From assembly GCA_963748825.1 (NCBI GenBank), contig CAVVKN010000018.1, positions 1 to 64,000 of the forward strand: a stretch of 64,000 nucleotides of DNA, in the 5' to 3' direction. Made by a program: the position numbers and the translations under genes. The stretch is from Methanotrichaceae archaeon (lineage in GTDB: Archaea; Halobacteriota; Methanosarcinia; Methanotrichales; Methanotrichaceae). This document shows positions 31,424 through 58,338 of the stretch, piece after piece. A model generated the notes under the pieces. It saw only the letters and a list, made by a program, of their open reading frames with translations. It ran no database searches and was not told the DNA's origin. Position 1 is the first letter of the stretch; each line of letters begins with the position of its first letter.

Positions 31424-33091
31424 TTGATGCCTGCACAATTAACATATCCAGGTGTATATATTGAAGAGATCCCGAGTGGTGTGCGAACCATCATGGGAGT
31501 TAGCACTTCCACGACAGCATTCCTGGGGAGAGCTAGTTGTGGACCTGTTAACGAGCCGAAGATCATCAACAACTTTGGAGATTTTGAAAGAACTTTCGGA
31601 AAAATTCAAGAAGATTTGCCTTTAGGTTATTCTGTAAAGGATTTCTTCTCAAATGGAGGTGGCAAAGCTATTATTGTGCGCCTTTATAAGAAAGCCACCT
31701 CAGACCAAGGAACTTTGGAAGGCTTTGCGGAATTAGATGTTGGTGGGGTCGTACTCCAAGCGTCGGGTCAAGGAATTTGGGCCAACAAGCTAAAAGCTAT
31801 TGTTGATTACATTGGGATAGATGATAATCCCAAGGTGCCTGAGCGTTTTGGCCTCGATAAAGATCAAATGTTTAATCTAACTATCTTTGAGGAGATAAAT
31901 GGGAATCGCACCAAAGTCGAGAAGTTCCTTAATGTGGCAGTTGATAAACCACAAAAGAATGCTGGTTCTAGAAGAGTTGATAGAGTCCTTGCTGCAGAAT
32001 CAAGCATGGTTAAGGTAAAGCTAGTAAACAATACGCCTGGCCTTCCTTCAACTCGACCTCCAATAGGTCCTGCTGCTGCTCCTGCTGCTGCTCCTGCTGC
32101 TGCTCCTGCTGCTGCTCCTACGGAAAAGATCTTTGGGCCATTCACTGGTGGCAATGACGGCCAAGGACTTTCCTCCAAGGATGACTTTATTGGAGGCAAA
32201 GATCCGCAGACAGGCCTATACGCTCTTGATAAAGCGGACATATTTAATCTGCTTTGTATCCCACCTGATGGAAGGGAGACGGATGTTCCTGCTGAAGTAT
32301 TTCAGGCTGCAGCCGAGTACTGTCATAAGCGAAGAGCTTTCCTGATAGTTGATCCTCAGAAGAGCTGGGGAAAACTCAGGGAGAAAGCCGTTAAAAACGC
32401 CAAAGATGGGGTCAACGGAATGAATCTAGGGGGTGAGAATGGTAGCAATGCCGCGATATTCTTCCCATGTGTACTCCAGATGGACTCTTTGAGAGGGGAT
32501 CAGATTGATACCTTTGTTCCTTGCGGCATTATTGCTGGCATCATGGCCAGAACCGATACCCAACGAGGAGTTTGGAAGGCTCCAGCTGGCCTAGATGCTA
32601 GCATTAATGTAATCGCTGGCCTCCAAGTGGATCTAAATGATGATGAAAACGGAGATCTTAATCCACTGGGAATAAATTGCCTCAGAAATTTCGATGTCTA
32701 TGGAAAGGTTGTTTGGGGAGCTAGGACATTGAGGGGAGCGGACCAATTGGCTAGCGAATGGAAATATATTCCTATAAGGCGCTTGGCTCTCTATATTGAA
32801 GAAAGCCTTTATCGTGGGACAAAGTGGGTTGTCTTCGAGCCCAACGATGAGCCTCTTTGGGCTCAGATTCGCCTTAATGTAGGTGCTTTCATGCATGGCC
32901 TCTTTCGTCAAGGTGCATTCCAGGGTACGACACCAAGAGATGCCTATTTCGTCAAATGCGATAATGAGACAACCACCCAGGACGATAGAAATCGCGGAAT
33001 TGTGAATATAGTCGTGGGCTTTGCACCTCTTAAACCTGCTGAGTTTGTTGTTATCAAGATCCAGCAGATTACAGGTCAGATAGAGACTTAG
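31424..33091 (+). CDS. Contractile tail sheath protein (gp18/Afp2-4-like)
   Basis: TYPGVYIEE, RGVWKAPAG, VWGARTL, WVVFEPNDEPLW, APLKPAEFV; the start is probably the ATG at 31427. Confidence 0.95.
   Translation: MMPAQLTYPGVYIEEIPSGVRTIMGVSTSTTAFLGRASCGPVNEPKIINNFGDFERTFGKIQEDLPLGYSVKDFFSNGGGKAIIVRLYKKATSDQGTLEGFAELDVGGVVLQASGQGIWANKLKAIVDYIGIDDNPKVPERFGLDKDQMFNLTIFEEINGNRTKVEKFLNVAVDKPQKNAGSRRVDRVLAAESSMVKVKLVNNTPGLPSTRPPIGPAAAPAAAPAAAPAAAPTEKIFGPFTGGNDGQGLSSKDDFIGGKDPQTGLYALDKADIFNLLCIPPDGRETDVPAEVFQAAAEYCHKRRAFLIVDPQKSWGKLREKAVKNAKDGVNGMNLGGENGSNAAIFFPCVLQMDSLRGDQIDTFVPCGIIAGIMARTDTQRGVWKAPAGLDASINVIAGLQVDLNDDENGDLNPLGINCLRNFDVYGKVVWGARTLRGADQLASEWKYIPIRRLALYIEESLYRGTKWVVFEPNDEPLWAQIRLNVGAFMHGLFRQGAFQGTTPRDAYFVKCDNETTTQDDRNRGIVNIVVGFAPLKPAEFVVIKIQQITGQIET
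32069..32119 (+). repeat. In-frame 12-bp tandem repeat (cctgctgctgct)x4 encoding (PAAA)4
   Basis: Four perfect copies at 32069-32116 plus cct. Confidence 0.95.
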
Positions 33092-33103
33092 GAGTGATAT
33101 GAA

Positions 33104-33637
33104 ATGGCACAGTTCAAAGTTAATACATATCGTTTTGATCCATATAAGAACTTTAAGTTCCTGGTCAAGTTCGAAGGTCAGACTGATCCCGTGGCTGGAA
33201 TGAGCAAGGTGAGTGGCCTAAAGCGAACTACCGAGGTTGTAAAGCATCGTGATGGCGGTGATCCAAGTTCAAGCCGAAAATCACCCGGCAGGACAGAGTA
33301 CGATCCCATCACTCTCGAGCGAGGAGTGACTCACGACACTGAATTCGAAAAGTGGGCAAACAAGGTCTGGAACTATGGAGCTGGCAGGGGCAACGAAGTA
33401 TCTTTAAAGGATTTCAGGAAGAATATACTGATAGAGGTCTTAAACGAGTCTGGACAGATCTCAATTAGATATAAAGTTTATCGATGTTGGGTATCGGAAT
33501 ATCAGGCTTTGTCGGATTTAGATGCTAATGCTAATGCTGTAGCGATACAGCATATCAAGCTTGAGAACGAGGGATGGGAAAGAGACCAAGAATTAACTGA
33601 ACCTACCGAGCCGAGCTTCTCTAATCCTGCAGAGTAG
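33104..33637 (+). CDS. Tail tube protein (T4 gp19/Afp1-like)
   Basis: DPYKNFKF, KSPGRTEYDPITLERG, LDANANAVAIQHIKL. Confidence 0.93.
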   Translation: MAQFKVNTYRFDPYKNFKFLVKFEGQTDPVAGMSKVSGLKRTTEVVKHRDGGDPSSSRKSPGRTEYDPITLERGVTHDTEFEKWANKVWNYGAGRGNEVSLKDFRKNILIEVLNESGQISIRYKVYRCWVSEYQALSDLDANANAVAIQHIKLENEGWERDQELTEPTEPSFSNPAE

Positions 33638-34378
33638 TTGAGCATGCAATCGATCTCAGCCTCTGAGCTGCTCGATATCTGGGAGAAAGGATCAGCTAAA
33701 GGGCCAATCCAAAGAGCAATTTTTCTTCTGATCGTAGCATTTCCTGAAAAACCCACCATTGAACTGGCTAATCTATGCATTGGCGAAAGGGATGCACACC
33801 TCTTAGCGTTACGTGAATATATATTTGGACCTATGCTAAATGGCTCTGCCGTTTGTCCTAAATGCGGAGAAAAAATAGAGTTCGACGTCGATGTGGATGC
33901 GTTAAAAGAAGCCTCTAGCGCAAAATCTTCTATAGACCTATCTATGGAATGCGGTGAATATAAGGTGTATTTCAGACTTCCAAACACCTTTGATCTTGAA
34001 GCCGTTTCAGTCTACCGGGAAATCGATTCAGCTAGAGACAACTTGCTTAAGCGTTGTTTATCGAAATCGTATCATAATGAGTGTGAGATACCTCTGGATA
34101 GCTTGCCGATTGAAGTTCTTGATTTAGTGGCTGCAGATATGAGCAAACTTGATCCACAGGGTGATTTGCTTTTTGAGCTTTCATGCCCTATTTGCGGCCA
34201 TAAATGGCAGGCTATCTTCGATATTGTATCATTTTTCTGGAGCGAGATAACCGCTTGGGCACAACGCATGCTTCGAGAGGTTCATGTTCTGGCCTCGGCT
34301 TACCGTTGGCGAGAGTCTGACATTTTGGCAATGAGCGCTTGGCGACGACAATCTTACTTGGAGATGTTAGGTACATGA
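33638..34378 (+). CDS. T4-baseplate-like (gp26-like) protein with two CxxC motifs
   Basis: IGERD..LL.LRE..FG, CPKCG, CPICG, VH.LA.AY.W.E.DIL.M...RR..YL. Confidence 0.75.
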   Translation: MSMQSISASELLDIWEKGSAKGPIQRAIFLLIVAFPEKPTIELANLCIGERDAHLLALREYIFGPMLNGSAVCPKCGEKIEFDVDVDALKEASSAKSSIDLSMECGEYKVYFRLPNTFDLEAVSVYREIDSARDNLLKRCLSKSYHNECEIPLDSLPIEVLDLVAADMSKLDPQGDLLFELSCPICGHKWQAIFDIVSFFWSEITAWAQRMLREVHVLASAYRWRESDILAMSAWRRQSYLEMLGT

Positions 34379-35388
34379 GAGATTACCTCAGCAACCTTGT
34401 CGGCAGAAGTTTAAACCTTGTTGATGTTGTAAGACCAAGGTTAATTTCAATGTTTGAACCGCCTGCTATCCAGGCGGATGGTACTTTTTTTTATGCATCT
34501 CGATCCTCCGGCGAAAGAAATGGTGAGCCAGAATCTGCAATCTCAAGCGTTAATCTTCGCCAGAATTATGGAGATCGCAAAAAGGGTATAAATACATCTG
34601 AGCTGATTACTGCCAAGAATGACTCAAAGATGTCTTTAGAAAATAAATTATCTGAGCCTCAACCAAGAGCTTTCGAAGATCAGCCGTTTGTTGAGGTGGC
34701 TTTGAATCCAATAGGATCTGCATACGAATTAAAGAGCATGGAAAGCAAGAATAATAATTTCTCTGATATAGTAAGATCAAATGAAAAAGCAATAAGAAAT
34801 GTAAAAAGTCAAGAACGCTCCAAAACAAAAAATTCTTTGATCAAGGACGAAAATATTCCAGAGCACCTAGGAATATTTAAAGGAGATGATTATTCTTATC
34901 GCATATCAAATGAAGATAGATCGCAGGAATTACAGGGGCTAGATATCCCTCGGATTGAGATTGAAGGAAGCAAATTAGAAAGACAAGATAAAGACTCAGA
35001 GGCAGAACATCGGCAATTCAAGGTGCCAAATGCTTCTCGAGACGCTAATAGTAACGAGAGAGAATACTTGGATGGCAAGAATGAGCGAATTGATCCGGTA
35101 TTAAAGATTCCCGATATCGAGACTGATTCTATCGTCAGCATTCGAATGCCTTTCCACATGAAAATGCAAACACAGAAGGCTATAAAAGAAAATATTCCTC
35201 AATCCATTTCTTCATACCAGGGATCAGGATTGCGGGAAATCTCTGATCCGGTGGTTCAAGTTACCATAGGTCGAATCGATGTGAAGGCAAATCAGCAACT
35301 GCCTAAATCCACTGCTAAACGTTCACCCTCTATTGCTCCAAGCTTGGACGAATATCTCAAGAGACGCGCTGATGGAGGTATTAGATGA
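34375..35388 (+). CDS. eCIS-associated hypothetical protein, largely disordered
   Basis: Overlaps both neighbours; charged low-structure middle; C-terminal VQVTIGRIDV...SLDEYL. Confidence 0.7.
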   Translation: MRDYLSNLVGRSLNLVDVVRPRLISMFEPPAIQADGTFFYASRSSGERNGEPESAISSVNLRQNYGDRKKGINTSELITAKNDSKMSLENKLSEPQPRAFEDQPFVEVALNPIGSAYELKSMESKNNNFSDIVRSNEKAIRNVKSQERSKTKNSLIKDENIPEHLGIFKGDDYSYRISNEDRSQELQGLDIPRIEIEGSKLERQDKDSEAEHRQFKVPNASRDANSNEREYLDGKNERIDPVLKIPDIETDSIVSIRMPFHMKMQTQKAIKENIPQSISSYQGSGLREISDPVVQVTIGRIDVKANQQLPKSTAKRSPSIAPSLDEYLKRRADGGIR

Positions 35389-36608
35389 GCAATCCATTAG
35401 CAATTGCTGCTGTAACGGCCACTCTCCAAAACCTCTTTACAAAAGAGATTCATAAAGATAATGCACTTTCAGATGCCATAATCACAGTACAGTCTCCGGA
35501 TAGAGCCAGAGGCAGCAATACTGCGAATCAGTTGAATATATTCCTTTACCAAGTTGCATATGATGCGGCATTCCGCAATGCTGTTATGCCTGGTCGATTG
35601 AGGCCAGGGGAGACAGGCTATCCGCCATTATCTCTCAGCCTTTTTTATCTGATCACTGCTTACGGCCAGGACAACGATGACACTAATAGCCATCATTTGT
35701 TAAGCAAGGCGATGAGCATACTGCATGATCATCCTCTACTGGGTGCGGATGAAATCAGGGACTCTCTTCCCGGAAACGATCTCTATAAGCAGCTAGAACG
35801 CGTGCGTATTACACCTCAACCTATCACCCTTGATGAGATGTCCAAGCTCTGGATGACCTTTCAGACTCAGTATAGGATCTCAGCTGCTTATCACATCTCG
35901 GTTGTGCTCATTGATAGCACTAGGGCTGTGACAACTCCTTTGCCCGTAATTAACCGCGGAGATGAGGATCAAGGAGCTGATGTTCTCTCCGCTCCCTCCG
36001 CTATCATTGAATCTATTGAGCTACCTGGAATAAAACGAAGCGCAGAGCTAGGAGATGTCATTACTTTAAAAGGCCAGCGATTTGATGACCAGATGAAATT
36101 GTACATACTAAATCAGCACATGCACGGCCCTGAGGATGAACCGATGCGAGAGGTGATATTAGAGCAGGAGCCTGGGAGCACGGCCAAAGAGATTAAGGTC
36201 AAGATACCCGATGATTCAACTAATTGGTCCGCAGGACTCTATACAATCCATGCCGCATTAAGCCTCAAGGGTGATAGAAAACTGACCACGAATGAGCTGC
36301 CCTTATCCCTGGCTCCAACCATTCTCAATATCCAACCCCCTTCAGCAAAGAAAGGCGATGTAACTCTGACCCTGACTGTCAAGCCCGATGTTCGGCCTAA
36401 ACAAGAGGTTTACCTTCTCTTCGGAAGTGATCAGATAGCTTTAAAAAGCAATCCTGCATCCGATGAACTCGTCTTTTCCTTTAATACTGCTAAAACAGGC
36501 GATCACATAGTTCGATTGAGGATTGATGGCGTTGACAGCATTCCAATCGATCCCAAGGCCACGCCTCCGAAGTTCGATGACAAGCAAAAGGTGAATATCC
36601 ATGATTGA
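35385..36608 (+). CDS. DUF4255 / Pvc16-like cap (tail terminator) with C-terminal Ig-like domains
   Basis: MSNPLAIAAVT, LNIFLYQV, L.L.YLITAY, LHDHP, SAAY..SVVLI. Confidence 0.85.
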   Translation: MSNPLAIAAVTATLQNLFTKEIHKDNALSDAIITVQSPDRARGSNTANQLNIFLYQVAYDAAFRNAVMPGRLRPGETGYPPLSLSLFYLITAYGQDNDDTNSHHLLSKAMSILHDHPLLGADEIRDSLPGNDLYKQLERVRITPQPITLDEMSKLWMTFQTQYRISAAYHISVVLIDSTRAVTTPLPVINRGDEDQGADVLSAPSAIIESIELPGIKRSAELGDVITLKGQRFDDQMKLYILNQHMHGPEDEPMREVILEQEPGSTAKEIKVKIPDDSTNWSAGLYTIHAALSLKGDRKLTTNELPLSLAPTILNIQPPSAKKGDVTLTLTVKPDVRPKQEVYLLFGSDQIALKSNPASDELVFSFNTAKTGDHIVRLRIDGVDSIPIDPKATPPKFDDKQKVNIHD

Positions 36609-38796: not shown

Positions 38797-39050
38797 GGAT
38801 AAACTTGCATATCGAGAGGCTTATTCTTGACGGCTTGCCACTTGAGCCCGGCCAGGGGCGTGTCGTGAAAGCAGCGGTTGAGGCGGAGCTGACCCGGATG
38901 ATTGCAGGCCAGGGCATATCATCAGAACTGATGACGGGAGGAGCAGTCCCTTCGGTATCAGCGAATGGCATTCAAATTGCTCCGGGGGCCAAACCGGCCG
39001 TCATCGGCAGAGAAATTGCCAGGTCGGTTTATGGAGGATTGGGCAGATGA
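38793..39050 (+). CDS. Small eCIS-associated hypothetical protein
   Basis: INLHIERLILDG; ATGA overlaps at both ends. Confidence 0.75.
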   Translation: MRINLHIERLILDGLPLEPGQGRVVKAAVEAELTRMIAGQGISSELMTGGAVPSVSANGIQIAPGAKPAVIGREIARSVYGGLGR

Positions 39051-40516: not shown

Positions 40517-40577
40517 CGAGCCAGAAAGGCCAATGAGATTAGCTGATCTAATAGACAAAGCAAGCTGAGATTATCAT

Positions 40578-42089: not shown

Positions 42090-42190
42090 CGGTTAAAGAG
42101 CCATCCACTAGAATCATGAGCTTAATGCAGATTTCTATATTTTTCTAGTTTGAAATTTAGGAGATTATATAATTAGCTGGAGATTCTCTG

Positions 42191-51054: not shown

Positions 51055-54000
51055 CAGAAATCTGCGGATGCTGCAAAGGCATTGAAGTCAAGACGCCGAT
51101 AGAGATATTTAATCGTCCAGGCTTAAACGGACTAGCCTACCGCATAGGCACCTATGCTAGCTTTATGGAGAGCATGAAGGCGAGGTTATCTGATCATGTA
51201 ATAAGCGTTCCCTGGATAACCGATGACAACGGAGAGCCTAAAGCTGTGGACGTATCTCCACTCAAGTACTTGATGATGCGGGAAGATGATCCGAGCATTG
51301 CCTTTATGGATGCTTGGGCCACTGTGGCAGATGTTTTGACCTTCTATCAGGAGCGCATTGCCAACGAGGGATACCTTCGAACGGCAACTGAACGCCTCTC
51401 TATTTTAGAGCTGGCCAGGCTGGTAGGATACAGACTCAGACCAGGGGTTTCTGCTACTGCATATCTGGCCTACACCATCGATGATGATAAGGCTGCCGAA
51501 ATACCGTTGAACGCCAGGTCTCAGAGCCTGCCGGAGCCGGGGGAGATGCCCCAGTCATTCGAGACCTCAGAAGTGCTGCAAGCCATGGGTGAGTGGAATA
51601 GCCTGAAGCCCAGAATGACCCGGCCCCAATATATTGATATCTGCAATGCTGAAACGGTAGATGTCCTCTATTTCAAAGGGATCTCTACCAATCTGAATCC
51701 CAACGATCCTCTGCTTTTCGAGTTCAGCAATAATCAACAGAATCAACAGGTCATCCGCTGGGTAAAGGAGGTTACTCCGGATCCCAAGACCAACACCACC
51801 AAGGTTGATCTTCTGGTATACTTGACGCCAGCTGCTATAATTAATGCTATAGCTCGTACAGTTAATATGTATCTCGATTTAGAATCATACTGCGTTTCAC
51901 CTGACAATGAAATTGCAATAAGAGTAATAGAATTCCTTCAAGAAATTAAAGTCGTAATAGATGAGTGCAATACTAGCGATAAAAGCGATACAATGTGCCA
52001 TGACGAGCTAATTGAAATCATAAAAAATTTTGATGAAAAGATTCCTAGCGATGTTGGACAGAATCCTCTAATAAAATTTTGGATATCTTCGCTTAAGACA
52101 GACCTGGAGGGATATCTTCCCACGGTATCATGGAGTTCTTCAATAGCTATGCTTGCAGGCGAAGGCATTAGGCGTGGAGTAAGAATTTCTGCTGCCCGAA
52201 ACTTGGAAGCATATAATGAGGTGTCCACTATTATAGCGGGTCTGGATGCAGCTCGAGTTCCACTTATGAAGAAAAGGTCGATACAGCCACGAAGCTCGAG
52301 ATATATAAATTTGCATGCCAGAGAACTCTATGCCCCACAGGCAGAAATCGGGACAAGGATGCTGAAGATCATGTATCCGAGGCTGGTGGATACTCTGGAT
52401 CGCGCTCTATCGAATGCCAGAGTCACAGCGCCCTCGAACCTGATAAGCGTCAATGCTTTTCGGGCCAAAGCTAGGCCGTTTGGCAATAATGCTCCGCAAA
52501 AACCGATCTACAATGACAAAGGCGCGATTAGAGGCTATGACGAGTGGCAACTTGCGTTAAAAGGGATAAAAAATATTAGAATTGATCTAATATTTAATAG
52601 GAAACCATTATCCTCGACGGCAGGAGTAACATATGATGATTCACTCGATGTATTTTTTAAAGAGATAGAGATTCAAGGTGAATTAGGTGCATCATTTAAA
52701 TTTGGAAAGAATGATGAGCTGAACTTAGAAATCAAAGCATATGTTGATAATTCTTTGTCAAATTATTTTTCTGAGTTTCATTTTTCTGGACCCATAAATC
52801 TCGATTTAAAAATTGAGGGTTATAACTCCATGAAAACCGATTTCTACTTCAACACTGAGAATTTCACTCTAAAGGTGGGCAACACACATATTATTTCAAA
52901 AAGCGCCGAAAGAATAGTAACATCAGTTAAAACGTATGACAACATTTCGATATTTTATGGAATACCCTTGAAGCCAGGAGAATATATTCAAAATATCCTA
53001 ACCTTAGATGCCCCTTACGAAAAGATCACTCCAGGGAGCTGGGTGCTTATCGACCGCCCTAATTCCAATCCAGGCCATGAAATTAGGAGATTCAAGGCAC
53101 AAGAGGCAAGAACTGTTTCTGAGGCTAATTACGGTATCACCGCTTCGGCTACGCAGCTCAGTCTAAAGCCGATGGAAAGTGGCAAAAACTGGCTCGAGTC
53201 CGATGACCTCACAATCTCCGTACTCCGAGGATCTACCGTATACGCCCAGAGCGAGATGCTCGAGCTTGCCGATGAGCCGATTGACCCCGAGCTTGAACCA
53301 GTATGCGGTGATGTCATCGAACTTGACCGCCTCTACACCGGCCTCGATCCAGGCAGGAGGCTTATCGTATCCGGTGAGCGCCTGGATGTTACCGGCACCA
53401 CAGGAGTCAGAGACGGCGAGCTGGTAATGCTGGCCGGAGTTACTCAGGACGTCATGAAAGTAAATTCTTTTATACCGATAGCTGAAAAAGAAAGATGCAA
53501 ACAGGAAGTTGATAAACAGAACAACTCTGTTCAAATTGGCTTGCCAGGAGATAAGACTCATACCTTCATAAAGCTGGCCAAGAAGCTGGCCTATGTCTAT
53601 AAGCGCGATACAGTAACCATCTATGGCAACGTCGTTAAGGCAACGCATGGGGAGACGAGAAACAACGAAGTTCTTGGCAGTGGTGATGCCAGCAAGTCAA
53701 TCCAGAGGCTTGCACTGCACCAGTCGCCCCTCACCTATGTCGCTGCAAATACTCCATCCGGCGCGAAAAGCACCTTGCAGGTCAGAGTGAATGATGTACT
53801 ATGGCACGAAGTCGATACAATGGCAGGCTTAAGGCCGAATGATCGCAATTATGTAATCTTTACCGATGACGAAGATAGGACCACTGTCGTATTTGGCGAT
53901 GGCAAGCAGGGGCTGCGACCGCCAACCGGAGTTGAGAATATCAGGGGCGTTTACAGAACGGGCATCGGCAAGGGAGGCAATGTAAAGGCCGAGAAGATCA

Positions 54001-54764
54001 GCCAGATGATGACCAGGCCCCTTAACGCCAAGAGCGTGATCAATCCCATGCGCGCCTCAGGAGGCGCAGACAGAGAGAACCTTCATCGAGCCAGGAAAAA
54101 TACCCCTCTGGCATTGATGGCCCTGGATCGCCTGGTCTCTGTGCAGGATTATAGCGATTTTACAAGGACATTTGCAGGCATTGAAAAAGCCAGCGCCGTT
54201 CGCATCTCCGATGGCAATAAGCAGCTGATTCATATCACCATAGCCGGAGCAGACGACATACCTATCGATGAGGATTCCGACCTCTATCGGAATCTGCTTT
54301 CAGCACTTATTGATTATGGTGATCCGGATCAGCCGGTAACGGTTGAGTTGCGAGATCTGATGCTTCTTCTGCTCAAGGCCGAGGTCAAGGTGCTGCCGGA
54401 CTACAAATGGGATTTCGTAGAGCCAAAGATCAGAGAAGCTCTGCTGGATGCATTTGGATTCGAAAAGAGAGAGCTGGGACAGGATGTCTACCTTAGCGAG
54501 GTTCTCAGCGTCATGCAAAATGTGGAAGGAGTAGGATATGTGGATGTGAATATATTGGATAGTATATCGGAAAAAACTTCCACTGACAATATTATGAACA
54601 TATATGAATCGAAATTGAAATCGAATCAACCCAGGCAATATATTAAAGCCAACCTGGCGATGCCCCCGACAAGCATCAATGCCGAGATATCTCCAGCGCA
54701 ACTGGCAATCTTCAGCCCGGATGCACCCCGCACCCTCGATCTGACGGAGGCGAAGAACTTATGA
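51051..54764 (+). CDS. Baseplate J/gp6-like wedge protein 2
   Basis: DVLTFYQERIANEGYLRTATE, VFGDG..G.RPPTG, GGADRE, DRLVSVQDY. Confidence 0.9.
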   Translation: MTEICGCCKGIEVKTPIEIFNRPGLNGLAYRIGTYASFMESMKARLSDHVISVPWITDDNGEPKAVDVSPLKYLMMREDDPSIAFMDAWATVADVLTFYQERIANEGYLRTATERLSILELARLVGYRLRPGVSATAYLAYTIDDDKAAEIPLNARSQSLPEPGEMPQSFETSEVLQAMGEWNSLKPRMTRPQYIDICNAETVDVLYFKGISTNLNPNDPLLFEFSNNQQNQQVIRWVKEVTPDPKTNTTKVDLLVYLTPAAIINAIARTVNMYLDLESYCVSPDNEIAIRVIEFLQEIKVVIDECNTSDKSDTMCHDELIEIIKNFDEKIPSDVGQNPLIKFWISSLKTDLEGYLPTVSWSSSIAMLAGEGIRRGVRISAARNLEAYNEVSTIIAGLDAARVPLMKKRSIQPRSSRYINLHARELYAPQAEIGTRMLKIMYPRLVDTLDRALSNARVTAPSNLISVNAFRAKARPFGNNAPQKPIYNDKGAIRGYDEWQLALKGIKNIRIDLIFNRKPLSSTAGVTYDDSLDVFFKEIEIQGELGASFKFGKNDELNLEIKAYVDNSLSNYFSEFHFSGPINLDLKIEGYNSMKTDFYFNTENFTLKVGNTHIISKSAERIVTSVKTYDNISIFYGIPLKPGEYIQNILTLDAPYEKITPGSWVLIDRPNSNPGHEIRRFKAQEARTVSEANYGITASATQLSLKPMESGKNWLESDDLTISVLRGSTVYAQSEMLELADEPIDPELEPVCGDVIELDRLYTGLDPGRRLIVSGERLDVTGTTGVRDGELVMLAGVTQDVMKVNSFIPIAEKERCKQEVDKQNNSVQIGLPGDKTHTFIKLAKKLAYVYKRDTVTIYGNVVKATHGETRNNEVLGSGDASKSIQRLALHQSPLTYVAANTPSGAKSTLQVRVNDVLWHEVDTMAGLRPNDRNYVIFTDDEDRTTVVFGDGKQGLRPPTGVENIRGVYRTGIGKGGNVKAEKISQMMTRPLNAKSVINPMRASGGADRENLHRARKNTPLALMALDRLVSVQDYSDFTRTFAGIEKASAVRISDGNKQLIHITIAGADDIPIDEDSDLYRNLLSALIDYGDPDQPVTVELRDLMLLLLKAEVKVLPDYKWDFVEPKIREALLDAFGFEKRELGQDVYLSEVLSVMQNVEGVGYVDVNILDSISEKTSTDNIMNIYESKLKSNQPRQYIKANLAMPPTSINAEISPAQLAIFSPDAPRTLDLTEAKNL

Positions 54765-56938
54765 ATATAGATAGGTTGTACAATCTCTTGCCGGCAATAT
54801 ACCGCATTCGTGATTCCGAGCAAGGTTATCCCTTGCGCTCGCTCTTGAGGGTGATAGCAGAGCAAGTGGACTTGGTCGAAGAGGATATCTACCAGCTCTA
54901 CGAGAACTGGTTCATTGAGACCTGCCAGGATTGGGTGGTTCCTTACATTGGTGATCTGGTCGGCTATAAGCAGGTTCACATAGCCGGAGAAGCTGATGTG
55001 ACTGCCACCTCCCAGAATCAGCAGCGCCATAAGATATTGATCCCTCGCAGAGATGTTGCCAATACCATCAAGCATCGGAGGCGCAAGGGAACATTATCTG
55101 TACTAGAGCAGATAGCAGAGGACGTCTCTGGCTGGCGGATTAGGGCGGTTGAGTCATATAAATGCTTGGCCTATAACCAGAATATAAATCACCTTTATCT
55201 GGAAAGAGGCAGAACTGTAAATTTGCGGAATTCAGAGGCCTTAGCGAATATAAATGGACCATTCGACCAACAGGCACATTTTGTTGAGATTTCAGGATCG
55301 AATGGCGGGAGAAGGACATACCATCTTAATGGAGTGGATGTCTTTGTCTGGAGGACAAGAGCATATTCTGTAACTGAAACAGAGGCCAAGAAGATCAAGG
55401 GGAAAAACCTCTTTACCTTCTCTGCCTTGGGCAACGAATCACCATTATTTGCCAAGCCAATTCACGGCCGGACTTCTGATGAATCAGGCGTTCCGATGCC
55501 TATCAGCCGCCAAGAACTAAGTGCGCACTTAGACAGATACTACGACATAATGGGGGACAGGAGTTTCAGGATCCGGAAGCTCATGGAGGGCGAAAATGTT
55601 TGGCAAACTGTTGATCCAAAGCATATCGTCTCCGCTGACTTGAAGAATCGTAGAATCTTAGAAGACAAAGAGTCCGGATTTGCAGTAGATCCCGATACAG
55701 TGGCAGTAGATCCGGAATTGGGGAAGGTCGCGTTCTTAGATCAAGTACCCGAACGGGTAAAAGTCTCTTATTACTATGGCTTTGCTGATGCAATCGGTGG
55801 TGGTGAGTACAACCGCTCTCTTTCTCAAGCCAAGGAATATAAGCTATACAGAGTAGGTCGCGACTGGTTCGAGAACATCAGTGCGGCCCTCAAAAAATGG
55901 GATGAGGAAAAGAAGAGCGAAGAGGATAAGGACGAAAAAGGCACAGTAAATGCATTAATTGAGATACTTGAAAGCGGATTATACGAAGAAAGATACGAAG
56001 AAAATTATGAAGAAAATAAAAAAATCAATATTCACTTAAATAAGAATGAAAGCCTGCAAATCAGAGCAGCGAATGGAGTCAGGCCGATCATCGAACTTGG
56101 AAACGATCTAAATGTAACGGGTGCAGAAGGAAGCAGCTTCACTATTGATGGTCTTATCATTGCAGGAGGGGCTCTCTCAATAAATGGCGAGGTTGCCAGG
56201 CTGGCAGTAAGACATTCTACTGTTGTGCCCGGCTTGGTTATCCCTTCAAACTGTAAGCCCAATCAATGCGTGTCCAGCATCAATATCCATGGCATGAAAG
56301 GTTGCTTATTTATAGAGAATAGCATAATTGGCCCCATCAATGTCGACAAAGGAACATTGGAGCCCATTTCTATTTCCATCAAGAACAGCATTTTAGATTC
56401 TCTGCATGCAGACCAAAAAATTGCGTCTTTGAGTTCCTCGTTTGGTTCTACGGCGCTTGCTGAGTTGAACATTCGCAACAGCACATTGTTGGGAAAGGTT
56501 CTGGTTCATTCCATAAAACTTGCTGAGAATACGATATTTCAGGGGAATGTGGAGGTCGCTCGCAGACAGGAAGGATGCATCCGTTTTTGCTATGTTCGAC
56601 CGGAATCAAGGACCCCGCAAAAGTTCAATTGTCAGCCTGATTTGACTTCCAAAGGGCTTAGCGGCATTGAAAAAATGCGGGCGGATGAGAGGGTCAAGCC
56701 GAGATTCATCAGCACCAAATACGGAAGCCCTTGGTATTGCGTACTTTCTGAGGACTGTGCAGATGAGATAAAGCGTGGTGCAGATGACGAGTCGGAGATG
56801 GGGGTCATGCATGACCTATACCGCCCACAGCGAGAAGCTAACCTGCATGATCGTCTTGAGGAGTTTACACCTGCAGATATGGAGATTGGAATAGTATTCA
56901 TGGGCGAAGAGGAAATTCAGGAGGATAATCAATTATGA
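54761..56938 (+). CDS. Baseplate/tail protein (P2 gpI-like N-terminus) with C-terminal beta-helix
   Basis: LY.LLPAIYR.RD, WFIETC..WVVPYIGDL, RRRKGT, EMG..H. Confidence 0.75.
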   Translation: MNIDRLYNLLPAIYRIRDSEQGYPLRSLLRVIAEQVDLVEEDIYQLYENWFIETCQDWVVPYIGDLVGYKQVHIAGEADVTATSQNQQRHKILIPRRDVANTIKHRRRKGTLSVLEQIAEDVSGWRIRAVESYKCLAYNQNINHLYLERGRTVNLRNSEALANINGPFDQQAHFVEISGSNGGRRTYHLNGVDVFVWRTRAYSVTETEAKKIKGKNLFTFSALGNESPLFAKPIHGRTSDESGVPMPISRQELSAHLDRYYDIMGDRSFRIRKLMEGENVWQTVDPKHIVSADLKNRRILEDKESGFAVDPDTVAVDPELGKVAFLDQVPERVKVSYYYGFADAIGGGEYNRSLSQAKEYKLYRVGRDWFENISAALKKWDEEKKSEEDKDEKGTVNALIEILESGLYEERYEENYEENKKINIHLNKNESLQIRAANGVRPIIELGNDLNVTGAEGSSFTIDGLIIAGGALSINGEVARLAVRHSTVVPGLVIPSNCKPNQCVSSINIHGMKGCLFIENSIIGPINVDKGTLEPISISIKNSILDSLHADQKIASLSSSFGSTALAELNIRNSTLLGKVLVHSIKLAENTIFQGNVEVARRQEGCIRFCYVRPESRTPQKFNCQPDLTSKGLSGIEKMRADERVKPRFISTKYGSPWYCVLSEDCADEIKRGADDESEMGVMHDLYRPQREANLHDRLEEFTPADMEIGIVFMGEEEIQEDNQL

Positions 56939-58338
56939 ATGGCGAATTTAGAGGAGATTTTACCCGCGACAGCTTCGATCCAAAAAAGCACTTCAGCCAG
57001 GTGATGATGCAGCAGGGCAGGGTGATGTTGGATTCCGAATTCAACGAGCTGCAGCAAATCCTAACGCACCAATTGCGGACACTTGCTAAGACTTTAATAG
57101 GAGATCATGGCGGATTCGACAAAGGTTTCGAGATAGAAGTACCAACAAAAACAGATGAATCAAAAAACAAATTCAAAATACACCGGGGCTCCTATTATGT
57201 GGATGGAATATTATGCGAAAATGAAGAAGAACTAAATTATTCAGAACAATATTGGGCAGAAGAGCTTCCGAAACCTAATGATCTACGTTATTACCTCGTA
57301 TATCTGGATGCATGGGAGCGCAGCATAGGCAAGATACAGGACGAATCCGTTCTAGAGAGGGCTCTGGATGGAGTGGATACAGCGGCAAGATCCAAGATTG
57401 AATGGATAGTAAGAACCAAATATGTAGACTATTCAAGAAGCGAAAAAAAGCGCTTCTATGACGAAAATGGAGAGCCTTTGGACGAATTAAAGGATTTAAT
57501 AGATGGAGGCAAAGTCAAAGGCAGCTTGAAAGCTCAAATCAAAGAGTTAGAAGTTGCCGAAGATCTTTGCCAAATATCTACTTTTTCGGAACTTAAAGGA
57601 TTGCCTAATCTGCTTTATAGAGTAGAGGTTCATAGAAAAGGCAAAGCTTACAAAGAAGAGGTAATAGATCCAGATCCTGCAGCTACCTTTAAATGGTCTA
57701 GAATGAATGGGTCTGTAGATTTTGTAATCGATAAAATTGGTAGTCCGGCCGAAAACAATGATCAGACACTTATAGTTGATTTGAAACAAGATCTGGCAAA
57801 GGATAAGGACTTCGTATTGGCGAAAGGCGATTGGGTTGAGATTGTTGACGATAAAAGCGTGCTTAAAGGAAAGACGTTCCCTCTATGGCAGGTCCAAGAG
57901 ATAGAGAGCAGAATTGTAACTCTAAAACGCGAGATACCTAAACCTAAGAATGGCGGAGAGAATTCAGACGAATTTTGTGCCAAGAAAAATCCGCTCTTGA
58001 GACGGTGGGACCATAAAGGAGAATCAATAAAATCAAAGAACGGGGGAGTTTTGCTTTCGGAAGGAGCCTTATTGATAGAGGAAGGTAAAGACATCAATCT
58101 TGAAAATAATATTCAGATTACATTCACGGGTGGTGAATATAAATCAGGAGATTATTGGATAATTCCTGCACGTCAGGCAACGGGGGGAATTGACTGGCCA
58201 GAGGGAGAATTTTTGTCTCCGCATGGTGTTGAGCATCATATTGCCCCCCTTGCATTTATATCAATAAAGAACGATATAACAACATTTGCAGGTAGTTACC
58301 GTCGTGTGCCAAAAGAAAATTTTACTGAAGAAGATTAA
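56935..58338 (+). CDS. DUF6519-type eCIS baseplate/fibre-attachment protein
   Basis: GDFTRDSFDP.KHFS.V.MQQGRV.LD, YYVDGILCE, LYRVEVH, GDYWIIPAR.ATG. Confidence 0.8.
   Translation: MNGEFRGDFTRDSFDPKKHFSQVMMQQGRVMLDSEFNELQQILTHQLRTLAKTLIGDHGGFDKGFEIEVPTKTDESKNKFKIHRGSYYVDGILCENEEELNYSEQYWAEELPKPNDLRYYLVYLDAWERSIGKIQDESVLERALDGVDTAARSKIEWIVRTKYVDYSRSEKKRFYDENGEPLDELKDLIDGGKVKGSLKAQIKELEVAEDLCQISTFSELKGLPNLLYRVEVHRKGKAYKEEVIDPDPAATFKWSRMNGSVDFVIDKIGSPAENNDQTLIVDLKQDLAKDKDFVLAKGDWVEIVDDKSVLKGKTFPLWQVQEIESRIVTLKREIPKPKNGGENSDEFCAKKNPLLRRWDHKGESIKSKNGGVLLSEGALLIEEGKDINLENNIQITFTGGEYKSGDYWIIPARQATGGIDWPEGEFLSPHGVEHHIAPLAFISIKNDITTFAGSYRRVPKENFTEED

Follow-up and report, generated by a model that had tools for sequence, protein, structure and literature searches.

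A capsid-less contractile injection system gene cluster in a Methanothrix-family methanogen

The window, by which we mean the whole 64,000-nucleotide stretch of DNA analysed, carries 20 open reading frames (ORFs) at 31424-58338, all on the + strand. An earlier note on this DNA had counted about 19 co-oriented genes; the common orientation is correct and the count becomes 20. The note had also described the genes as mostly translationally coupled and the structural genes as free of frameshifts. Once the starts are corrected, neighbouring ORFs overlap by 4-8 nt at 12 of the 19 junctions and abut at one more, and neither internal stops nor frameshifts were found in the 20 cluster ORFs (~27 kb). 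Thirteen of the 20 proteins match contractile-injection families in Pfam (E<=0.01): Phage_sheath_1C, Phage_T4_gp19, T4_baseplate, Pvc16_N, WHD with AAA, eCIS_core three times (once with OmpA), Phage_base_V, GPW_gp25, Baseplate_J twice, and DUF6519 with DUF4815. The sheath, gp19, gp25 and Baseplate_J families that the note had proposed for a search are among them. Four further proteins are backed by profile searches, three of these weakly, so that among the parts named in the note the hub is supported and the matches of the initiator, LysM protein and tip are weak. The features are listed below, with the gp25 start reset to the ATG that overlaps the stop of the preceding gene.

30441..31008, - strand: histone-deacetylase-family pseudogene, frameshifted (three frames), divergent from the cluster
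31257..31421, + strand: Zn-ribbon gene remnant, C-terminal ~55 codons of a ~115-aa protein, with one TGA and one TAA
31424..33091, + strand: sheath (Cis2/Afp2-like), 555 aa, single gene, Ala/Pro linker; Phage_sheath_1C 1e-10
33104..33637, + strand: inner tube (Cis1/Afp1-like); Phage_T4_gp19 1.9e-44
33638..34378, + strand: T4_baseplate-family protein with Zn-ribbon motifs; PF12322 1.7e-14
34375..35388, + strand: variable polar protein, ~337-349 aa, tape-measure candidate by position only
35385..36608, + strand: cap / tail terminator (Afp16/Pvc16-like); Pvc16_N 3.1e-47
36601..38796, + strand: AAA+ ATPase with N-terminal winged helix (Afp15/Pvc15-like cargo-loading ATPase); AAA 1.8e-26, WHD 1e-19
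38793..39050, + strand: conserved 85-aa protein, at the same position in relatives
39047..40516, + strand: cargo candidate 1, with N-terminal region, eCIS_core (DUF4157, HExxH), OmpA-like domain and C-terminal tail
40578..42089, + strand: cargo candidate 2, with N-terminal region, eCIS_core and caspase/CHAT-like (clan CD) cysteine-protease-like domain
42191..44152, + strand: cargo candidate 3, with N-terminal region paralogous to that of candidate 2, degenerate and full eCIS_core, and His-rich C-terminal domain
44153..44684, no strand: non-coding gap, 532 nt, no conserved coding
44685..45350, + strand: second tube-fold protein (tube initiator, Cis5 or Cis7 N-domain); ATT where relatives have ATG
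45357..45674, + strand: LysM-like small baseplate protein (Cis7 C-domain-like); weak profile matches
45667..46788, + strand: baseplate hub, gp27/gpD-like N-terminal half of VgrG (Cis8), as its own gene; profile A2
46785..47327, + strand: spike, OB-fold gp5/gpV-like half of VgrG; Phage_base_V 7.4e-18
47343..47684, + strand: spike tip, PAAR/DUF4280-like, by orthologue matches
47681..48052, + strand: gp25-like baseplate wedge (Cis9); GPW_gp25 2.3e-14, residues 74-161 of the long ORF
48049..51054, + strand: Baseplate_J protein 1 (second Afp11/Cis11-like copy), 1001 aa; Baseplate_J 6.7e-7
51051..54764, + strand: Baseplate_J protein 2 (Afp11/Cis11 equivalog), 1237 aa; TIGR02243 1.2e-72
54761..56938, + strand: peripheral baseplate protein, 725 aa, Cis12 candidate; Phage_Mu_Gp48 0.04
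56935..58338, + strand: DUF6519/DUF4815 protein, fibre or baseplate-anchor (eBAP5) candidate; DUF6519 5.8e-75, DUF4815 8.6e-8

In the first half of the cluster, the inner tube (69-77% identity) and the T4_baseplate-family protein (phrog_150 'baseplate hub', 1.6e-11) are kept in all ten family loci examined. The following 349-aa protein matches no Pfam, NCBIfam or PHROGs family, and relatives in five of the ten loci align with only its N-terminal ~45-110 residues; its position makes it a tape-measure candidate. The translated AAA+ ATPase shows both Walker motifs, A and B. The 85-aa protein behind it matches no family searched and recurs at the same position in seven of the ten loci (37-59% identity).

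The baseplate half begins after the 532-nt gap, for which tblastx and blastn gave no match in family loci, in named loci or elsewhere in the genome. An AT-rich stretch and a GGAGG precede the ATT at 44685, the GGAGG lying 8 nt upstream, and the gap may hold an internal promoter for the baseplate genes. The frame of the second tube gene is open from 44673, and its first ATG, GTG or TTG is at 44850. Because ATT replaces ATG, starting at this first canonical codon would drop 55 conserved tube-fold residues. ATT is an accepted start in table 11, and eight relatives, which start with ATG, align from residues 3-12 of the N-terminal extension. The CIS_tube match (2.1e-5; 24.7 bits, just below the cut-off of 27) is obtained with the long form from ATT 44685 only.

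For the LysM-like protein, profile A4 gave weak matches to All3321 of the tCIS (7b5h_AK, 0.079) and to a 'LysM domain-containing protein' (7aeb_M, 0.34), and phrog_46 and phrog_7145 also matched weakly at ~0.003. The hub profile matched VgrG (9rce_F, 7.7e-11), 7aef_q (2.7e-6), 9gtr_q (0.0096) and 7b5h_AJ (0.022). The window copy of the tip has no PAAR_motif or DUF4280 match at E<=1 and is 38-54% identical to eight aligned orthologues, of which five match PAAR_motif (best 4.2e-5) and four match DUF4280 (best 1.9e-6). Both Baseplate_J proteins have a chain of the S. coelicolor baseplate (9gtp_1K) as their only PDB match, protein 1 at 1.6e-8 and protein 2 at 2e-10. Protein 1 also matches phrog_219 (4e-24); protein 2 exceeds the TIGR02243 cut-off (245.5 against 155.8 bits) and matches Baseplate_J at 3.4e-6. 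The 725-aa protein has no PDB match and no family match beyond Phage_Mu_Gp48, so a Mu gp48 / P2 gpI-like N-terminus and a Cis12 role can only be suggested weakly. It is 30-43% identical to proteins in family genomes G015, G008, G095, G090, G036 and G070, and an N-terminal fragment lies at a contig end in G096. DUF6519 has been named eBAP5, a tail-fibre baseplate anchor (Nachmias 2026, PMC12923769).

All three cargo candidates share the build of CIS cargo, namely an N-terminal region followed by DUF4157 and then by a variable C-terminal domain. DUF4157 has been associated with toxins (Geller 2021), and AlgoCIS cargo is described as NTD-DUF4157-CTD with the NTD as an AAA+-dependent loading signal (10.64898/2026.05.27.728243). 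Candidate 1 (eCIS_core 2.1e-30) has an OmpA match (5.1e-13) covering profile positions 2-96 of 98, and its C-terminal part found only two weak matches among 100 family genomes. In candidate 2 (eCIS_core 2.1e-31), an AF2 model of residues 185-503 (pLDDT 86.9) matched SAVED-CHAT 8tl0 (3.9e-5) and MARTX CPD 3eeb (8.1e-4) in Foldseek, and a His-Gly and a Cys are invariant across 25 sequences. The partial fold match (TM-score 0.31) and the invariant His/Cys pair suggest a caspase/CHAT-like protease. Candidate 3 (eCIS_core 9e-33; 24 database homologues) shares a DNA repeat with candidate 2 (D4: 40601-40744 and 42214-42357, 74% identity), which makes their N-termini paralogous. Its C-terminal domain was modelled at pLDDT 66.7 and gave no Foldseek match at E<=0.001. 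The C-terminal domains of candidates 2 and 3 each matched in none of the 100 family genomes. A new finding is that the OmpA-like, caspase/CHAT-like and His-rich cargo domains lack a clear counterpart in 100 relatives. No small ORF fit to be an immunity gene lies between the cargo genes.

Every part of the locus is a phage-tail homologue, and toxin-antitoxin modules, repeats and a SIR2-like defence gene, which are common in mobile islands, lie downstream of the cluster. Such features would fit an R-type tailocin or a myovirus prophage that has become defective. However, Terminase_6N, TerL_ATPase, Phage_capsid and Phage_portal were not found in the 94.9%-complete genome, and the 30 flanking ORFs scanned contain no capsid, portal, terminase or integrase family match, as the earlier note had claimed. 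Pvc16_N, the WHD-AAA ATPase, three eCIS_core domains and DUF6519 are markers that score eCIS loci, and the identical headless layout recurs in ten family loci. A phage origin of this kind is highly improbable for the present locus.

The closest named sheaths are bacterial (56-57% identity) and the GC content of the locus lies under the genome mean, as might be expected if a bacterial contig had been binned or assembled with an archaeal genome. That reading is practically refuted. The cluster is embedded in a 151-kb contig, mcrA is present in the genome, and 26 of 30 same-genus genomes share a flanking FAD-oxidase gene at 74-93% identity, at least five of them with a CIS sheath beside it. Of 100 family genomes, 36 carry a sheath homologue. 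The DNA comes from a genuine Methanotrichaceae methanogen and the contig is not a bin contaminant; the Methanothrix-like host proposed earlier is confirmed and the chimeric contig that the note had considered was not seen. These results support a real gene cluster for a contractile injection system without a capsid, apparently kept open, in a Methanothrix-family methanogen.

The surroundings of the cluster are less well preserved. The Zn-ribbon remnant is 45% identical by tblastn to residues 66-120 of a protein of family genome G090, and the gene accompanies the CIS locus in 34 of the 36 sheath-positive family genomes. Compared by tblastn with its intact G090 counterpart (Hist_deacetyl 3.7e-39), the deacetylase pseudogene aligned as three segments, each in another frame, and tblastx finds this region conserved upstream of the sheath in G015, G070, G090 and G096. 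A Cys/Met PLP gene is split by a frameshift at about 23344-23480, and the decayed flanks described in the earlier note are thus real; an IS66-type transposase lies at 248-1558. 'Apparently intact' therefore applies to the reading frames and not to the two conserved accessory genes upstream, which are pseudogenised, or to the ATT-started structural gene. The ATT start, the Zn-ribbon remnant and the frameshifted deacetylase gene raise the possibility that this copy is decaying or has poor expression. Together with the PLP-gene frameshift and the GC content (47.0% for the locus vs 50.8% for the genome), they would suit an inactive relic, acquired and no longer expressed, whose open frames reflect recent acquisition and not selection. 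But the ~27 kb of open frames stand beside decayed neighbours, the ATT is an accepted table-11 start behind a GGAGG, and the catalytic motifs are undamaged (HExxH in all three cargo candidates, Walker A and B, His/Cys). In addition, an intact Zn-ribbon and deacetylase pair on contig C22 of the same genome (Zn-ribbon paralogue at 68406-68732) could act in trans. We consider a relic quite unlikely.

The assignment to an Afp/PVC/MAC-type eCIS in the earlier note needs to be revised. The locus resembles Afp of Serratia entomophila and PVC of Photorhabdus (lineage Ia; 6RAO, 6J0B) in its sheath, gp19-type tube, VgrG-type spike, PAAR, gp25, Afp11, Afp15 ATPase and Afp16 cap. However, Afp and PVC have three sheath paralogues (Afp2-4, Pvc2-4) and one Afp11 where the window has one and two, their sheaths match the window sheath through the C-terminal domain only, VgrG and Cis7 each seem to be split into two genes in the window, and no Afp13 or Afp14 homologue was recognised there. 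DUF4157 in the window cargo is absent from PVC cargo (10.64898/2026.05.27.728243). The two Afp11-like genes and the split spike are lineage II traits. Full-length sheath likeness is instead to 9EZM (1.7e-71, the top PDB match, whose best stretch spans only window residues 339-552) and 8BKY (9.9e-68, residues 3-550), both from non-extracellular systems.

The first of these sheaths is Cis2 of Halogeometricum borinquense, identified from the data statement of PMC11566945, and belongs to the 'archaeal T6SS' (dbeCIS clade IIa; Zachs 2024). It is a membrane-anchored haloarchaeal system, and a comparable contact-dependent, T6SS-like mode could apply here. Like the window, the H. borinquense cluster has two cis11 (Afp11-like) genes and a single sheath gene, both hosts are Euryarchaeota with protein envelopes, and archaeal loci were placed in subtypes IIa and IIc with two afp11 copies (Chen 2019). 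Horizontal transfer of the H. borinquense cluster has been proposed (PMC11566945). In haloarchaea, however, this mode correlates with a conserved six-TM protein beside the cluster (PMC11566945). A hydropathy scan, which was our TM test, gave no convincing TM segment in any cluster protein and no ORF with at least two TM-like segments nearer than 15 kb, although an anchor could be encoded elsewhere. The window also differs from the H. borinquense cluster as reported in its three DUF4157 cargo-like proteins and its DUF6519 fibre-anchor protein. We regard an anchored mode as unlikely, yet a real contender.

The second sheath belongs to the cytoplasmic CISSc of S. coelicolor (8BKY, 9GTP; PMC10066040, PMC12237407), which supplies the one solved relative of both window Baseplate_J proteins, a baseplate J-like chain, and whose Cis8 weakly matches the hub profile. 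The Anabaena tCIS (7B5H; PMC8894136), which fires only on lysis or ghost-cell formation, resembles the window in having DUF4157 proteins as putative cargo, and its Cis7 LysM and Cis8 weakly match the window profiles; its sheath is similar in the C-terminal domain only (7.5e-38). These likenesses, and the lack of immunity-like genes beside the cargo genes, would agree with a device that acts on the producer or its filament by causing stress-induced cell death, forming ghost cells or breaking the filament. Methanothrix forms multicellular filaments within a sheath, and Streptomyces and Anabaena are also filamentous and multicellular. Nevertheless, neither a CisA-like protein as in CISSc nor a TM-bearing Cis13-like protein, which with Cis11 extensions anchors the tCIS, was seen in the cluster or its surroundings. 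CISSc differs further from the window, where hub and spike are two genes and the host is archaeal. An OmpA-like peptidoglycan-binding domain would have no obvious substrate inside an archaeon, and the wholly different cargo between related species and the replacement of cassettes resemble an arms race and not a developmental device. Such a self-directed role is also quite unlikely.

The three cargo candidates fit the pattern of AlgoCIS of Algoriphagus machipongonensis (7ADZ, 7AEF; PMC8894135), in which a disordered N-terminal loading sequence, alike within one system, is followed by DUF4157 and a variable C-terminal domain, and loading needs the AAA+ ATPase. The AlgoCIS sheath resembles that of the window in the C-terminal domain only (8.1e-36). 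AlgoCIS is a proven released bacterial particle, and CISSc acts within its producer during stress-induced death. Closer in host are the headless PLTS of ANME and Methanomethylovorans hollandica (Chadwick 2022, PMC9012536; 10.1101/2024.05.23.595608), likened to the window by description only. Their Methanosarcinales-related hosts carry very different versions, for which HGT was inferred, and transcription of the cluster is known for ANME-2c at least. Where Methanothrix enters these papers it is an outgroup for other traits, with no CIS treatment in those passages. CIS/PLTS loci of methanogens and ANME have been catalogued, and the table of Evseev 2022 includes a Methanothrix sheath. With 36 positive family genomes as well, the novelty suggested in the earlier note was overstated, but its statement that methanogen CIS clusters are experimentally unexplored agrees with Zachs 2024 (PMC11566945).

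What is new is the count of family sheath homologues and, by sequence comparison, their history. Gene order is the same wherever the contig extends in the ten family loci, and through the last gene in six. In G036, G095, G090 and G080 the FAD-oxidase gene and the sheath are 1.6-2.9 kb apart, and in G092 this gene is 7.8 kb from the sheath and 1.7 kb from a sheath fragment; these five sheaths are only 42-56% identical to that of the window. In a tree of 18 family sheaths with bacterial ones, the family sheaths form at least five clusters interspersed among the bacterial sheaths, and a single clade is rejected (p-AU 4e-63). Very divergent CIS versions thus occupy one chromosomal site in related species, and the family sheaths are polyphyletic among bacterial ones.

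The reading that we favour, tentatively, is a chromosomal capsid-less CIS of eCIS lineage II, carried as a swappable cassette and released as a free particle against neighbouring bacteria. Two features, the DUF6519 fibre-anchor protein and the absence of membrane proteins close by, tilt the balance to a free particle. Since the nearest full-length sheath relatives are not of the Afp/PVC type and the locus has lineage II traits, the extracellular mode is an assumption. No lysis or release genes were recognised. Methanothrix has no peptidoglycan, and its cells are enclosed in a protein sheath, so that neither release nor outward firing is easy to explain in mechanical terms. We lean towards a bacterial target because an OmpA domain occurs in a peptidoglycan-free organism and immunity-gene ORFs are lacking between the cargo genes, although the OmpA domain may merely have come with a cassette of bacterial origin.

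In the favoured free-particle reading, the AAA+ ATPase would load cargo into the tube via the shared N-terminal regions, the particle would bind a neighbouring cell through the DUF6519 protein, and the contracting sheath would push both spike and cargo inside. The proteins delivered would be the OmpA-like protein, probably peptidoglycan-binding, the putative caspase/CHAT-like cysteine protease and the His-rich domain, and the likely targets would be bacteria living beside the archaeon. For the family, the comparison of loci indicates that the machine is a swappable cassette, with a cargo set that appears specific to this genome.

Positions 31424-58338 of the window carry 20 successive ORFs on the forward strand, and the opposite strand has no long ORF there. 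Starts were corrected for three of them, which places gp25 at 47681, the 349-aa protein at 34375, and the second tube gene at 44685. With the corrected starts, 12 of the 19 junctions are overlaps of 4-8 nt, one pair of genes abuts, and only three intergenic gaps exceed 20 nt (61, 101, and 532 nt). At a Pfam cut of E<=0.01, 13 of the 20 products could be named.

Products encoded in the contractile injection system (CIS) cluster, all on the forward strand, with Pfam families and E-values
Sheath: Phage_sheath_1C, 1e-10
Inner tube: Phage_T4_gp19, 1.9e-44
T4_baseplate-family product: 1.7e-14
Cap, Afp16-type (DUF4255): Pvc16_N, 3.1e-47
ATPase, Afp15-type AAA+: WHD, 1e-19, and AAA, 1.8e-26
39047-40516, 40578-42089, and 42191-44152, candidate cargo 1, 2, and 3: eCIS_core (DUF4157), 2e-30 to 9e-33; cargo 1 also OmpA, 5.1e-13
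46785-47327, spike, 180 aa: Phage_base_V, 7.4e-18
From 47681, gp25 wedge: GPW_gp25, 2.3e-14
Two Baseplate_J genes: 6.7e-7 and 3.4e-6
Last gene: DUF6519, 5.8e-75, and DUF4815, 8.6e-8
34375-35388: 349-aa protein
38793-39050: 85-aa protein
44685-45350: second tube gene (166 aa when read from 44850)
45357-45674: LysM-like protein, 105 aa
45667-46788: hub, 373 aa
47343-47684: candidate tip, 113 aa
54761-56938: 725-aa protein

This gene set is far beyond chance. Seven products had no Pfam match, and for four of these we built profiles from the window sequence and 7-8 family orthologues. The 373-aa profile matched the N-terminal gp27-like half of VgrG/Cis8 chains from four solved CIS (best 7.7e-11), indicating that the 373-aa protein is the hub and the 180-aa Phage_base_V protein a separate spike. 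The Afp8-type VgrG spike is split over two genes. The 105-aa profile weakly matched the LysM part of tCIS All3321 (0.079) and a "LysM domain-containing protein" of AlgoCIS (0.34). Among the orthologues of the 113-aa protein, five of eight contain PAAR_motif and four of eight DUF4280; the window copy itself matches neither, and its PAAR-like profile found no PDB chain. Single-sequence PDB searches with the 725-aa, 373-aa, and 166-aa proteins returned nothing usable, and the sole trace for the 725-aa protein is Phage_Mu_Gp48 at 0.04. The searches made with the 349-aa and 85-aa proteins gave no family match. The second Baseplate_J protein (1237 aa) belongs to TIGR02243, "putative baseplate assembly protein" (NCBIfam, 1.2e-72, above the cut-off). 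The parts list of the earlier note was right, though its "initiator", "LysM", and "tip" have matches that are weak or indirect. For the 532-nt gap (44153-44684) no relative turned up anywhere, and we therefore refrain from naming it a decayed gene. At about 32064-32124, where the sheath is variable in its middle, the gene contains a short tandem Ala/Pro-rich stretch of four AAAP-type units, flagged as a repeat.

All 20 frames have zero stops and zero frameshifts. The second tube gene is the one with an unusual start. Read from 44673 onward its frame is open, and ATG, GTG, or TTG occurs first at 44850. The 55 codons upstream of 44850 align with all eight family orthologues, which start with ATG about where the window has ATT (44685). 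GGAGG stands 8 nt ahead of this ATT, and a CIS_tube match (2.1e-5, 24.7 bits against a cut-off of 27) is obtained with the long form alone. The gene either starts at this ATT or has lost its start. Some genes upstream of the cluster are broken. In relatives, a Zn-ribbon protein of about 115 aa, with no Pfam family, is encoded either immediately upstream of the sheath gene or at the opposite end of the locus. Its gene is present in 41 of 100 family genomes, including 34 of 36 sheath-positive and 7 of 64 sheath-negative ones, although these kin are not independent. Only its last ~55 codons are left in the window (31257-31421), with one TGA and one TAA. A divergent Hist_deacetyl gene, which accompanies the Zn-ribbon gene in four relatives of the family (G015, G070, G090, and G096), is broken into three frames at 30441-31008. 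Some 8 kb upstream of the cluster, a Cys/Met-metabolism PLP-enzyme gene (22551-23751, +) is frameshift-split into ORFs covering profile positions 2-270 and 264-380.

The contrast between decayed neighbours and open structural genes, which had been pointed out from the sequence, therefore holds, and it suggests that the 27-kb block is under selection or has arrived recently. The cluster might instead be a copy in decay, as the three blemishes suggest (the ATT at the second tube gene, the Zn-ribbon remnant, and the frameshifted deacetylase), but its frames are all open beside genes that have broken, and we consider decay quite improbable. Elsewhere in the same genome (G000, contig C22, 67424-68747), a histone-deacetylase-family gene and a ~115-aa Zn-ribbon gene, both intact, are divergently paired, and there are no CIS genes near them. 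The two pseudogenes that lie upstream of the sheath gene in the window are paralogous to this pair. A protein-atlas look-up of the Zn-ribbon protein gave only sub-threshold leads (0.85-0.86) to TFIIB-type Zn-ribbon clusters, which do not count as evidence.

The window makes up the first 64 kb of a contig of 151 kb, which belongs to a genome of 2.88 Mb in 25 contigs (94.9% complete, 1.7% contaminated). This genome encodes McrA, and the host family is Methanotrichaceae. Homologues of the FAD-oxidase gene beside the locus (27574-28947) occur at 74-93% identity in 26 of the 30 genomes sampled from the same genus, which indicates that the contig is native and not a bacterial contaminant. McrA and this flanking gene mark the host as a real Methanotrichaceae methanogen; the earlier note had supposed a Methanothrix-like host. 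Methanothrix harundinacea UBA475 (G008), of the same family, also has a sheath locus, at contig positions 154917-156491. The note had further reported no capsid, portal, or terminase. This was borne out, since searches of the 94.9%-complete assembly for Terminase_6N, TerL_ATPase, Phage_capsid, and Phage_portal came up empty while control genomes were positive, and the 30 flanking ORFs scanned had no match to head, packaging, or integrase families. A myovirus prophage or an R-type tailocin is highly improbable, given that no head genes were found in this assembly and that the eCIS markers (ATPase, cap, and eCIS_core) are present.

The features of the eCIS/PLTS superfamily were found in all six groups: sheath and tube, VgrG and Baseplate_J, gp25 and tip (the tip through orthologues only), ATPase and cap, absence of a head, and DUF4157. 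The Afp15-type ATPase and the Afp16-type cap are the features that separate eCIS from phage tails, pyocins, and T6SS. The Afp8-type spike and the Afp11-type Baseplate_J co-occur in 98.7% of the loci surveyed by Geller 2021. The best PDB match of the sheath is 9EZM (1.7e-71), which the data statement of Zachs et al. 2024 (PMC11566945) gives as the Halogeometricum borinquense Cis2 sheath. It is followed by 8BKY/9GTP (~1e-67) and 8BL4/9GTS (~1e-64), with full-length alignment over residues 3-550; 8BKY is listed as S. coelicolor Cis2, and 9GTP comes from the CisA paper. In contrast, the sheaths of Afp, PVC, tCIS, and AlgoCIS match the window's sheath over the C-terminal ~190 residues only. The sole PDB match of both Baseplate_J proteins is the baseplate chain of 9GTP. 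Chen 2019 describes lineage II as having no recognisable afp12, afp13, or afp14, assigns two afp11 copies to subtypes IIa and IIc, with afp6, afp13, and afp14 divergent or absent, and places archaeal loci in these subtypes. With two Baseplate_J genes and no Afp13 or Afp14 recognisable by Pfam, NCBIfam, or PHROGs, our locus would fit the IIa/IIc description.

The haloarchaeal Halogeometricum system is described as membrane-anchored and killing by contact (PMC11566945), the Streptomyces system as cytoplasmic and tied to cell death, and the Anabaena system as thylakoid-anchored and firing in ghost cells (PMC8894136). Since these three nearest characterised systems are anchored or cytoplasmic, the label "eCIS" in its strict, extracellular sense, as used earlier for this locus, is an assumption. 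An anchored, contact-dependent mode resembling an archaeal T6SS would agree with the nearest solved sheath, which belongs to the membrane-anchored H. borinquense system (9EZM). However, the T6SS-like mode in haloarchaea goes with an adjacent six-TM protein (PMC11566945), and our hydropathy scan revealed no convincing TM segment in the cluster proteins and no ORF of at least 70 aa with at least two TM-like segments in the window from 18 to 64 kb, nor any such ORF less than 15 kb from the cluster. The DUF6519 protein also speaks against anchoring. It is the last gene product and short (467 aa), with no separate receptor-binding domain identified, and its family is described as a fibre baseplate anchor, eBAP5 (Nachmias et al. 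2026, PMC12923769). We regard the anchored mode as unlikely. A cytoplasmic, self-directed mode, to which the full-length sheath match and both Baseplate_J matches with the S. coelicolor system (8BKY and 9GTP) would point, is very improbable in our estimate. The DUF6519 gene and the absent TM neighbours, both weak indicators, lean toward a free particle. No lysis genes were recognised. Release as an extracellular particle is the best explanation of how the system works, even though we put it slightly short of an even chance. We are considerably more confident that the locus encodes a genuine and probably functional CIS that carries cargo and is very likely directed at other cells. Three soil RNA runs from one study, compared with 31000-50900 at 90% likeness, gave 0 contigs, which counts neither for nor against expression.

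The three eCIS_core (DUF4157) proteins lie in a row in the middle of the cluster. They are the only three in the genome, all score above the cut-off, and all keep HExxH. The N-termini of cargo 2 and cargo 3 are Cys-rich and alike, their DNA being 74% identical over 144 nt (repeat family D4). In AlgoCIS, experiments showed that the cargo has a system-specific N-terminal loading sequence, then a dispensable DUF4157, and then a variable effector domain, and that its loading depends on the AAA+ ATPase (10.64898/2026.05.27.728243). The architecture of our three proteins is that of AlgoCIS cargo. DUF4157 is reported as fused or adjacent to many toxins (Geller 2021).

The C-terminal domains differ among the three. 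Cargo 1 contains an OmpA-family domain (PF00691, 49.6 bits against a cut-off of 27.2, profile positions 2-96 of 98), followed by about 160 unassigned residues. OmpA-like domains have a peptidoglycan-binding motif with conserved Asp and Arg, and a motif of the type GHTD...N..L....RA..V is visible in the translation; the domain is predicted to be of the peptidoglycan-binding type. The 300-residue C-terminal domain of cargo 2 has 25 database homologues, 20 of which are fused to PF13699. The model from that alignment was confident (pLDDT 86.9, pTM 0.84). Foldseek gave six matches at E<=0.001, five of them to chains of SAVED-CHAT and one to the cysteine protease domain of V. cholerae MARTX; the SAVED-CHAT probability was 1.00, but the TM-score only 0.31. 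Craspase CHAT, caspases, legumain, and C11 followed at higher E-values. Clan CD cysteine proteases have a caspase-like fold in which His-Gly and Cys each come after a hydrophobic strand (MEROPS descriptions). In the cargo 2 domain, His113-Gly114 and Cys166 are invariant in 25 of 25 sequences and come after model strands 105-111 and 155-164. No Pfam peptidase family matched at E<=0.5, and a protein-atlas look-up returned only an unnamed cluster of its own kind (0.91) and sub-threshold leads. We read the domain as a putative clan CD cysteine protease, caspase/CHAT-like. The 350-residue C-terminal domain of cargo 3 has 24 homologues, 14 of them with PF13699, and several invariant His residues. 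Its AF2 model (pLDDT 66.7) came out poorly over the His-rich half, and there was no Foldseek match at E<=0.001 and no Pfam match at E<=0.5. An impression of an HNH-like nuclease motif was unsupported.

None of the 100 other sampled family genomes yielded the C-terminal domain of cargo 2 or that of cargo 3, and the one of cargo 1 gave only two weak matches among 100. The cargo set is thus specific to the window's genome, whereas the machine is common. We found no small ORF between the cargo genes as a possible immunity gene. The host is not known to have peptidoglycan. From the lack of an immunity-type ORF and the OmpA-type domain in such a host, we infer that bacteria are the most likely target.

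Of the 100 family genomes sampled, 36 have a sheath homologue; within the same genus the count is 25 of 54. In ten fetched family loci, the gene order is the same wherever the contig reaches (six of the ten reach the last gene), with identities of 24-77%. The closest sheath is that of G015, which belongs to a different genus of the family (62-68% identity, varying with the method), and the best named matches are bacterial (Pyrinomonadaceae, Chloroflexia, and cyanobacteria; 56-57%). A sheath tree of 75 rows was made by a quick search on 511 columns, from 88 ORFs less eight fragmentary or poorly matching ones and six same-locus duplicates, plus the window. The 18 Methanotrichaceae rows fell in at least five clusters interleaved with bacteria. 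The best tree uniting the Methanotrichaceae sheaths was 368 log-likelihood units worse (p-AU 4e-63), for a group that is taxonomic but was tested after the tree was seen. Two further features were seen among the relatives' sheaths. In one cluster, the first ~90-107 residues and the remainder occupy separate open frames some 200-260 nt from each other (G070:C5:19103-20892, G068:C5:4926-6658, G081:C49:3111-4867, and G026:C11:88799-90609, as genome, contig, and positions), which may reflect a frameshift, an insertion, or a sheath made from two genes. At least ten family genomes have a second and distant type of sheath (38-47% identity over the C-terminal half), for example at G045:C1:1797081-1801173, G061:C24:16349-20063, and G080:C70:66088-67554. 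G045 and G061 have tandem sheath genes; the window's genome has one sheath only.

The FAD-oxidase gene (84-93% identical) is divergent from the sheath gene and 1.6-2.9 kb away in four relatives (G036, G095, G090, and G080), and 2.5 kb away in the window. In a fifth, G092, its distance to the sheath gene is 7.8 kb, but a sheath fragment lies within 1.7 kb of it. Sheaths at this site share only 42-56% identity with that of the window, and those included in the tree fall in different clusters. The chromosomal site of the locus is thus fixed; the downstream flank is not common to the relatives' loci. Between the FAD-oxidase gene and the CIS, 29500-29870 is conserved by tblastx (36-53%) in G036, G090, and G095, and contains only a 72-aa ORF on the reverse strand with no family. 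The locus also looks mosaic. The window's sheath is nearer to G015 (62%) than to G090 (48%), whereas the ATPase (57%), gp25 (70-72%), and Baseplate_J (52-54%) are nearest to G090/G096, against 43%, 55%, and 35-42% for G015. The GC content is 47.0% in the locus versus 50.8% in the genome. The pattern fits a cassette replaced and reshuffled by recombination at a conserved site. We met no description of such a pattern in the papers on archaeal CIS that we consulted, which were not chosen with it in mind.

A bolder reading is that the CIS of Methanothrix-family methanogens is a hypervariable weapon cassette at one fixed site, whose entire machines and cargo are swapped among species and with bacteria. 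The window's version would be aimed at bacterial neighbours in methanogenic consortia through its peptidoglycan-binding cargo and caspase-like protease, and the lineage-specific Zn-ribbon protein, possibly TFB-like and found with 34 of 36 family loci, would be a dedicated regulator or assembly factor. We hold this combined reading to be doubtful. If true, it would be the first archaeal injection system aimed at bacteria.

The flanks of the locus contain other features. A decayed fibre or effector gene had been suspected at 58.4-62.9 kb because of strong GC skew. This candidate was rejected, and the region actually consists of HicB, HicB/HicA, and VapB-like/PIN modules separated by repeats. The toxin-antitoxin run directly follows the last CIS gene, at 58586-60596.

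Toxin-antitoxin genes after the CIS cluster
58604-58828: solitary HicB-like gene
59221-59671: HicB/HicA
59983-60596: VapB-like gene and PIN gene

The modules are separated by GC-rich non-coding repeats, a 247-nt pair of 96% identity (58922-59168 and 62209-62455) and a 90-nt family of 68-86% identity (59704-59793, 60710-60799, and 62105-62194), which look like miniature mobile or structured elements. Further along, a SIR2_2 protein matches the ThsA, Dsr1, and LmuA models of PADLOC (best 4.1e-13; 62885-63958, -, with 61004-61833, -). Its gene adjoins two unassigned ORFs of 173 and 96 aa, and the region is a possible defence module. The contig start (248-2846, -, and 3481-4451, +) encodes a transposase of the IS66 family, a protein of 400 aa that matches "Upx" in PADLOC (7.4e-13), and a nucleotidyltransferase/HEPN pair. 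A trehalose cluster at 18496-22554 (+) comprises fused Glyco_transf_20/Trehalose_PPase, DUF5752, and TreT-type trehalose synthase genes.

Archaeal CIS/PLTS have already been catalogued (Chen 2019 has ten loci from archaea, and Geller 2021 has 19 archaeal genomes), so our locus belongs to a known kind. ANME clusters have been compared and one was reported as transcribed (PMC9012536; 10.1101/2024.05.23.595608), a Methanothrix sheath appears in a table of Evseev 2022, and Zachs 2024 (PMC11566945) names methanogen CIS as unexplored. Whether bacteria are the target of archaeal CIS is a question raised in PLoS Biology in 2025, in a paper on peptidoglycan hydrolases of archaea. None of the works we consulted that mention both Methanothrix or Methanosaeta and contractile injection studies a Methanothrix CIS. 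New from the present analysis are how often the locus occurs in the family, the polyphyletic cassette at a fixed site, its Zn-ribbon partner gene, the three blemishes, and a genome-specific cargo that includes a caspase/CHAT-like family. The finding is solid and useful for an open question, but it is no surprise to specialists. The locus reveals no new kind of system.

The locus offers several testable items: the OmpA-like cargo, the caspase/CHAT-like cargo family that is almost always fused to DUF4157, the His-rich cargo family, and the conserved Zn-ribbon partner gene. In digesters, wetlands, and rice soils, the main methanogens that consume acetate are relatives of Methanothrix, and they are tightly packed with bacterial partners. 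An injection machine present in about one third of the sampled family genomes, with cargo varying by species, could shape the community of neighbours, which could in turn affect methane output and granule stability.
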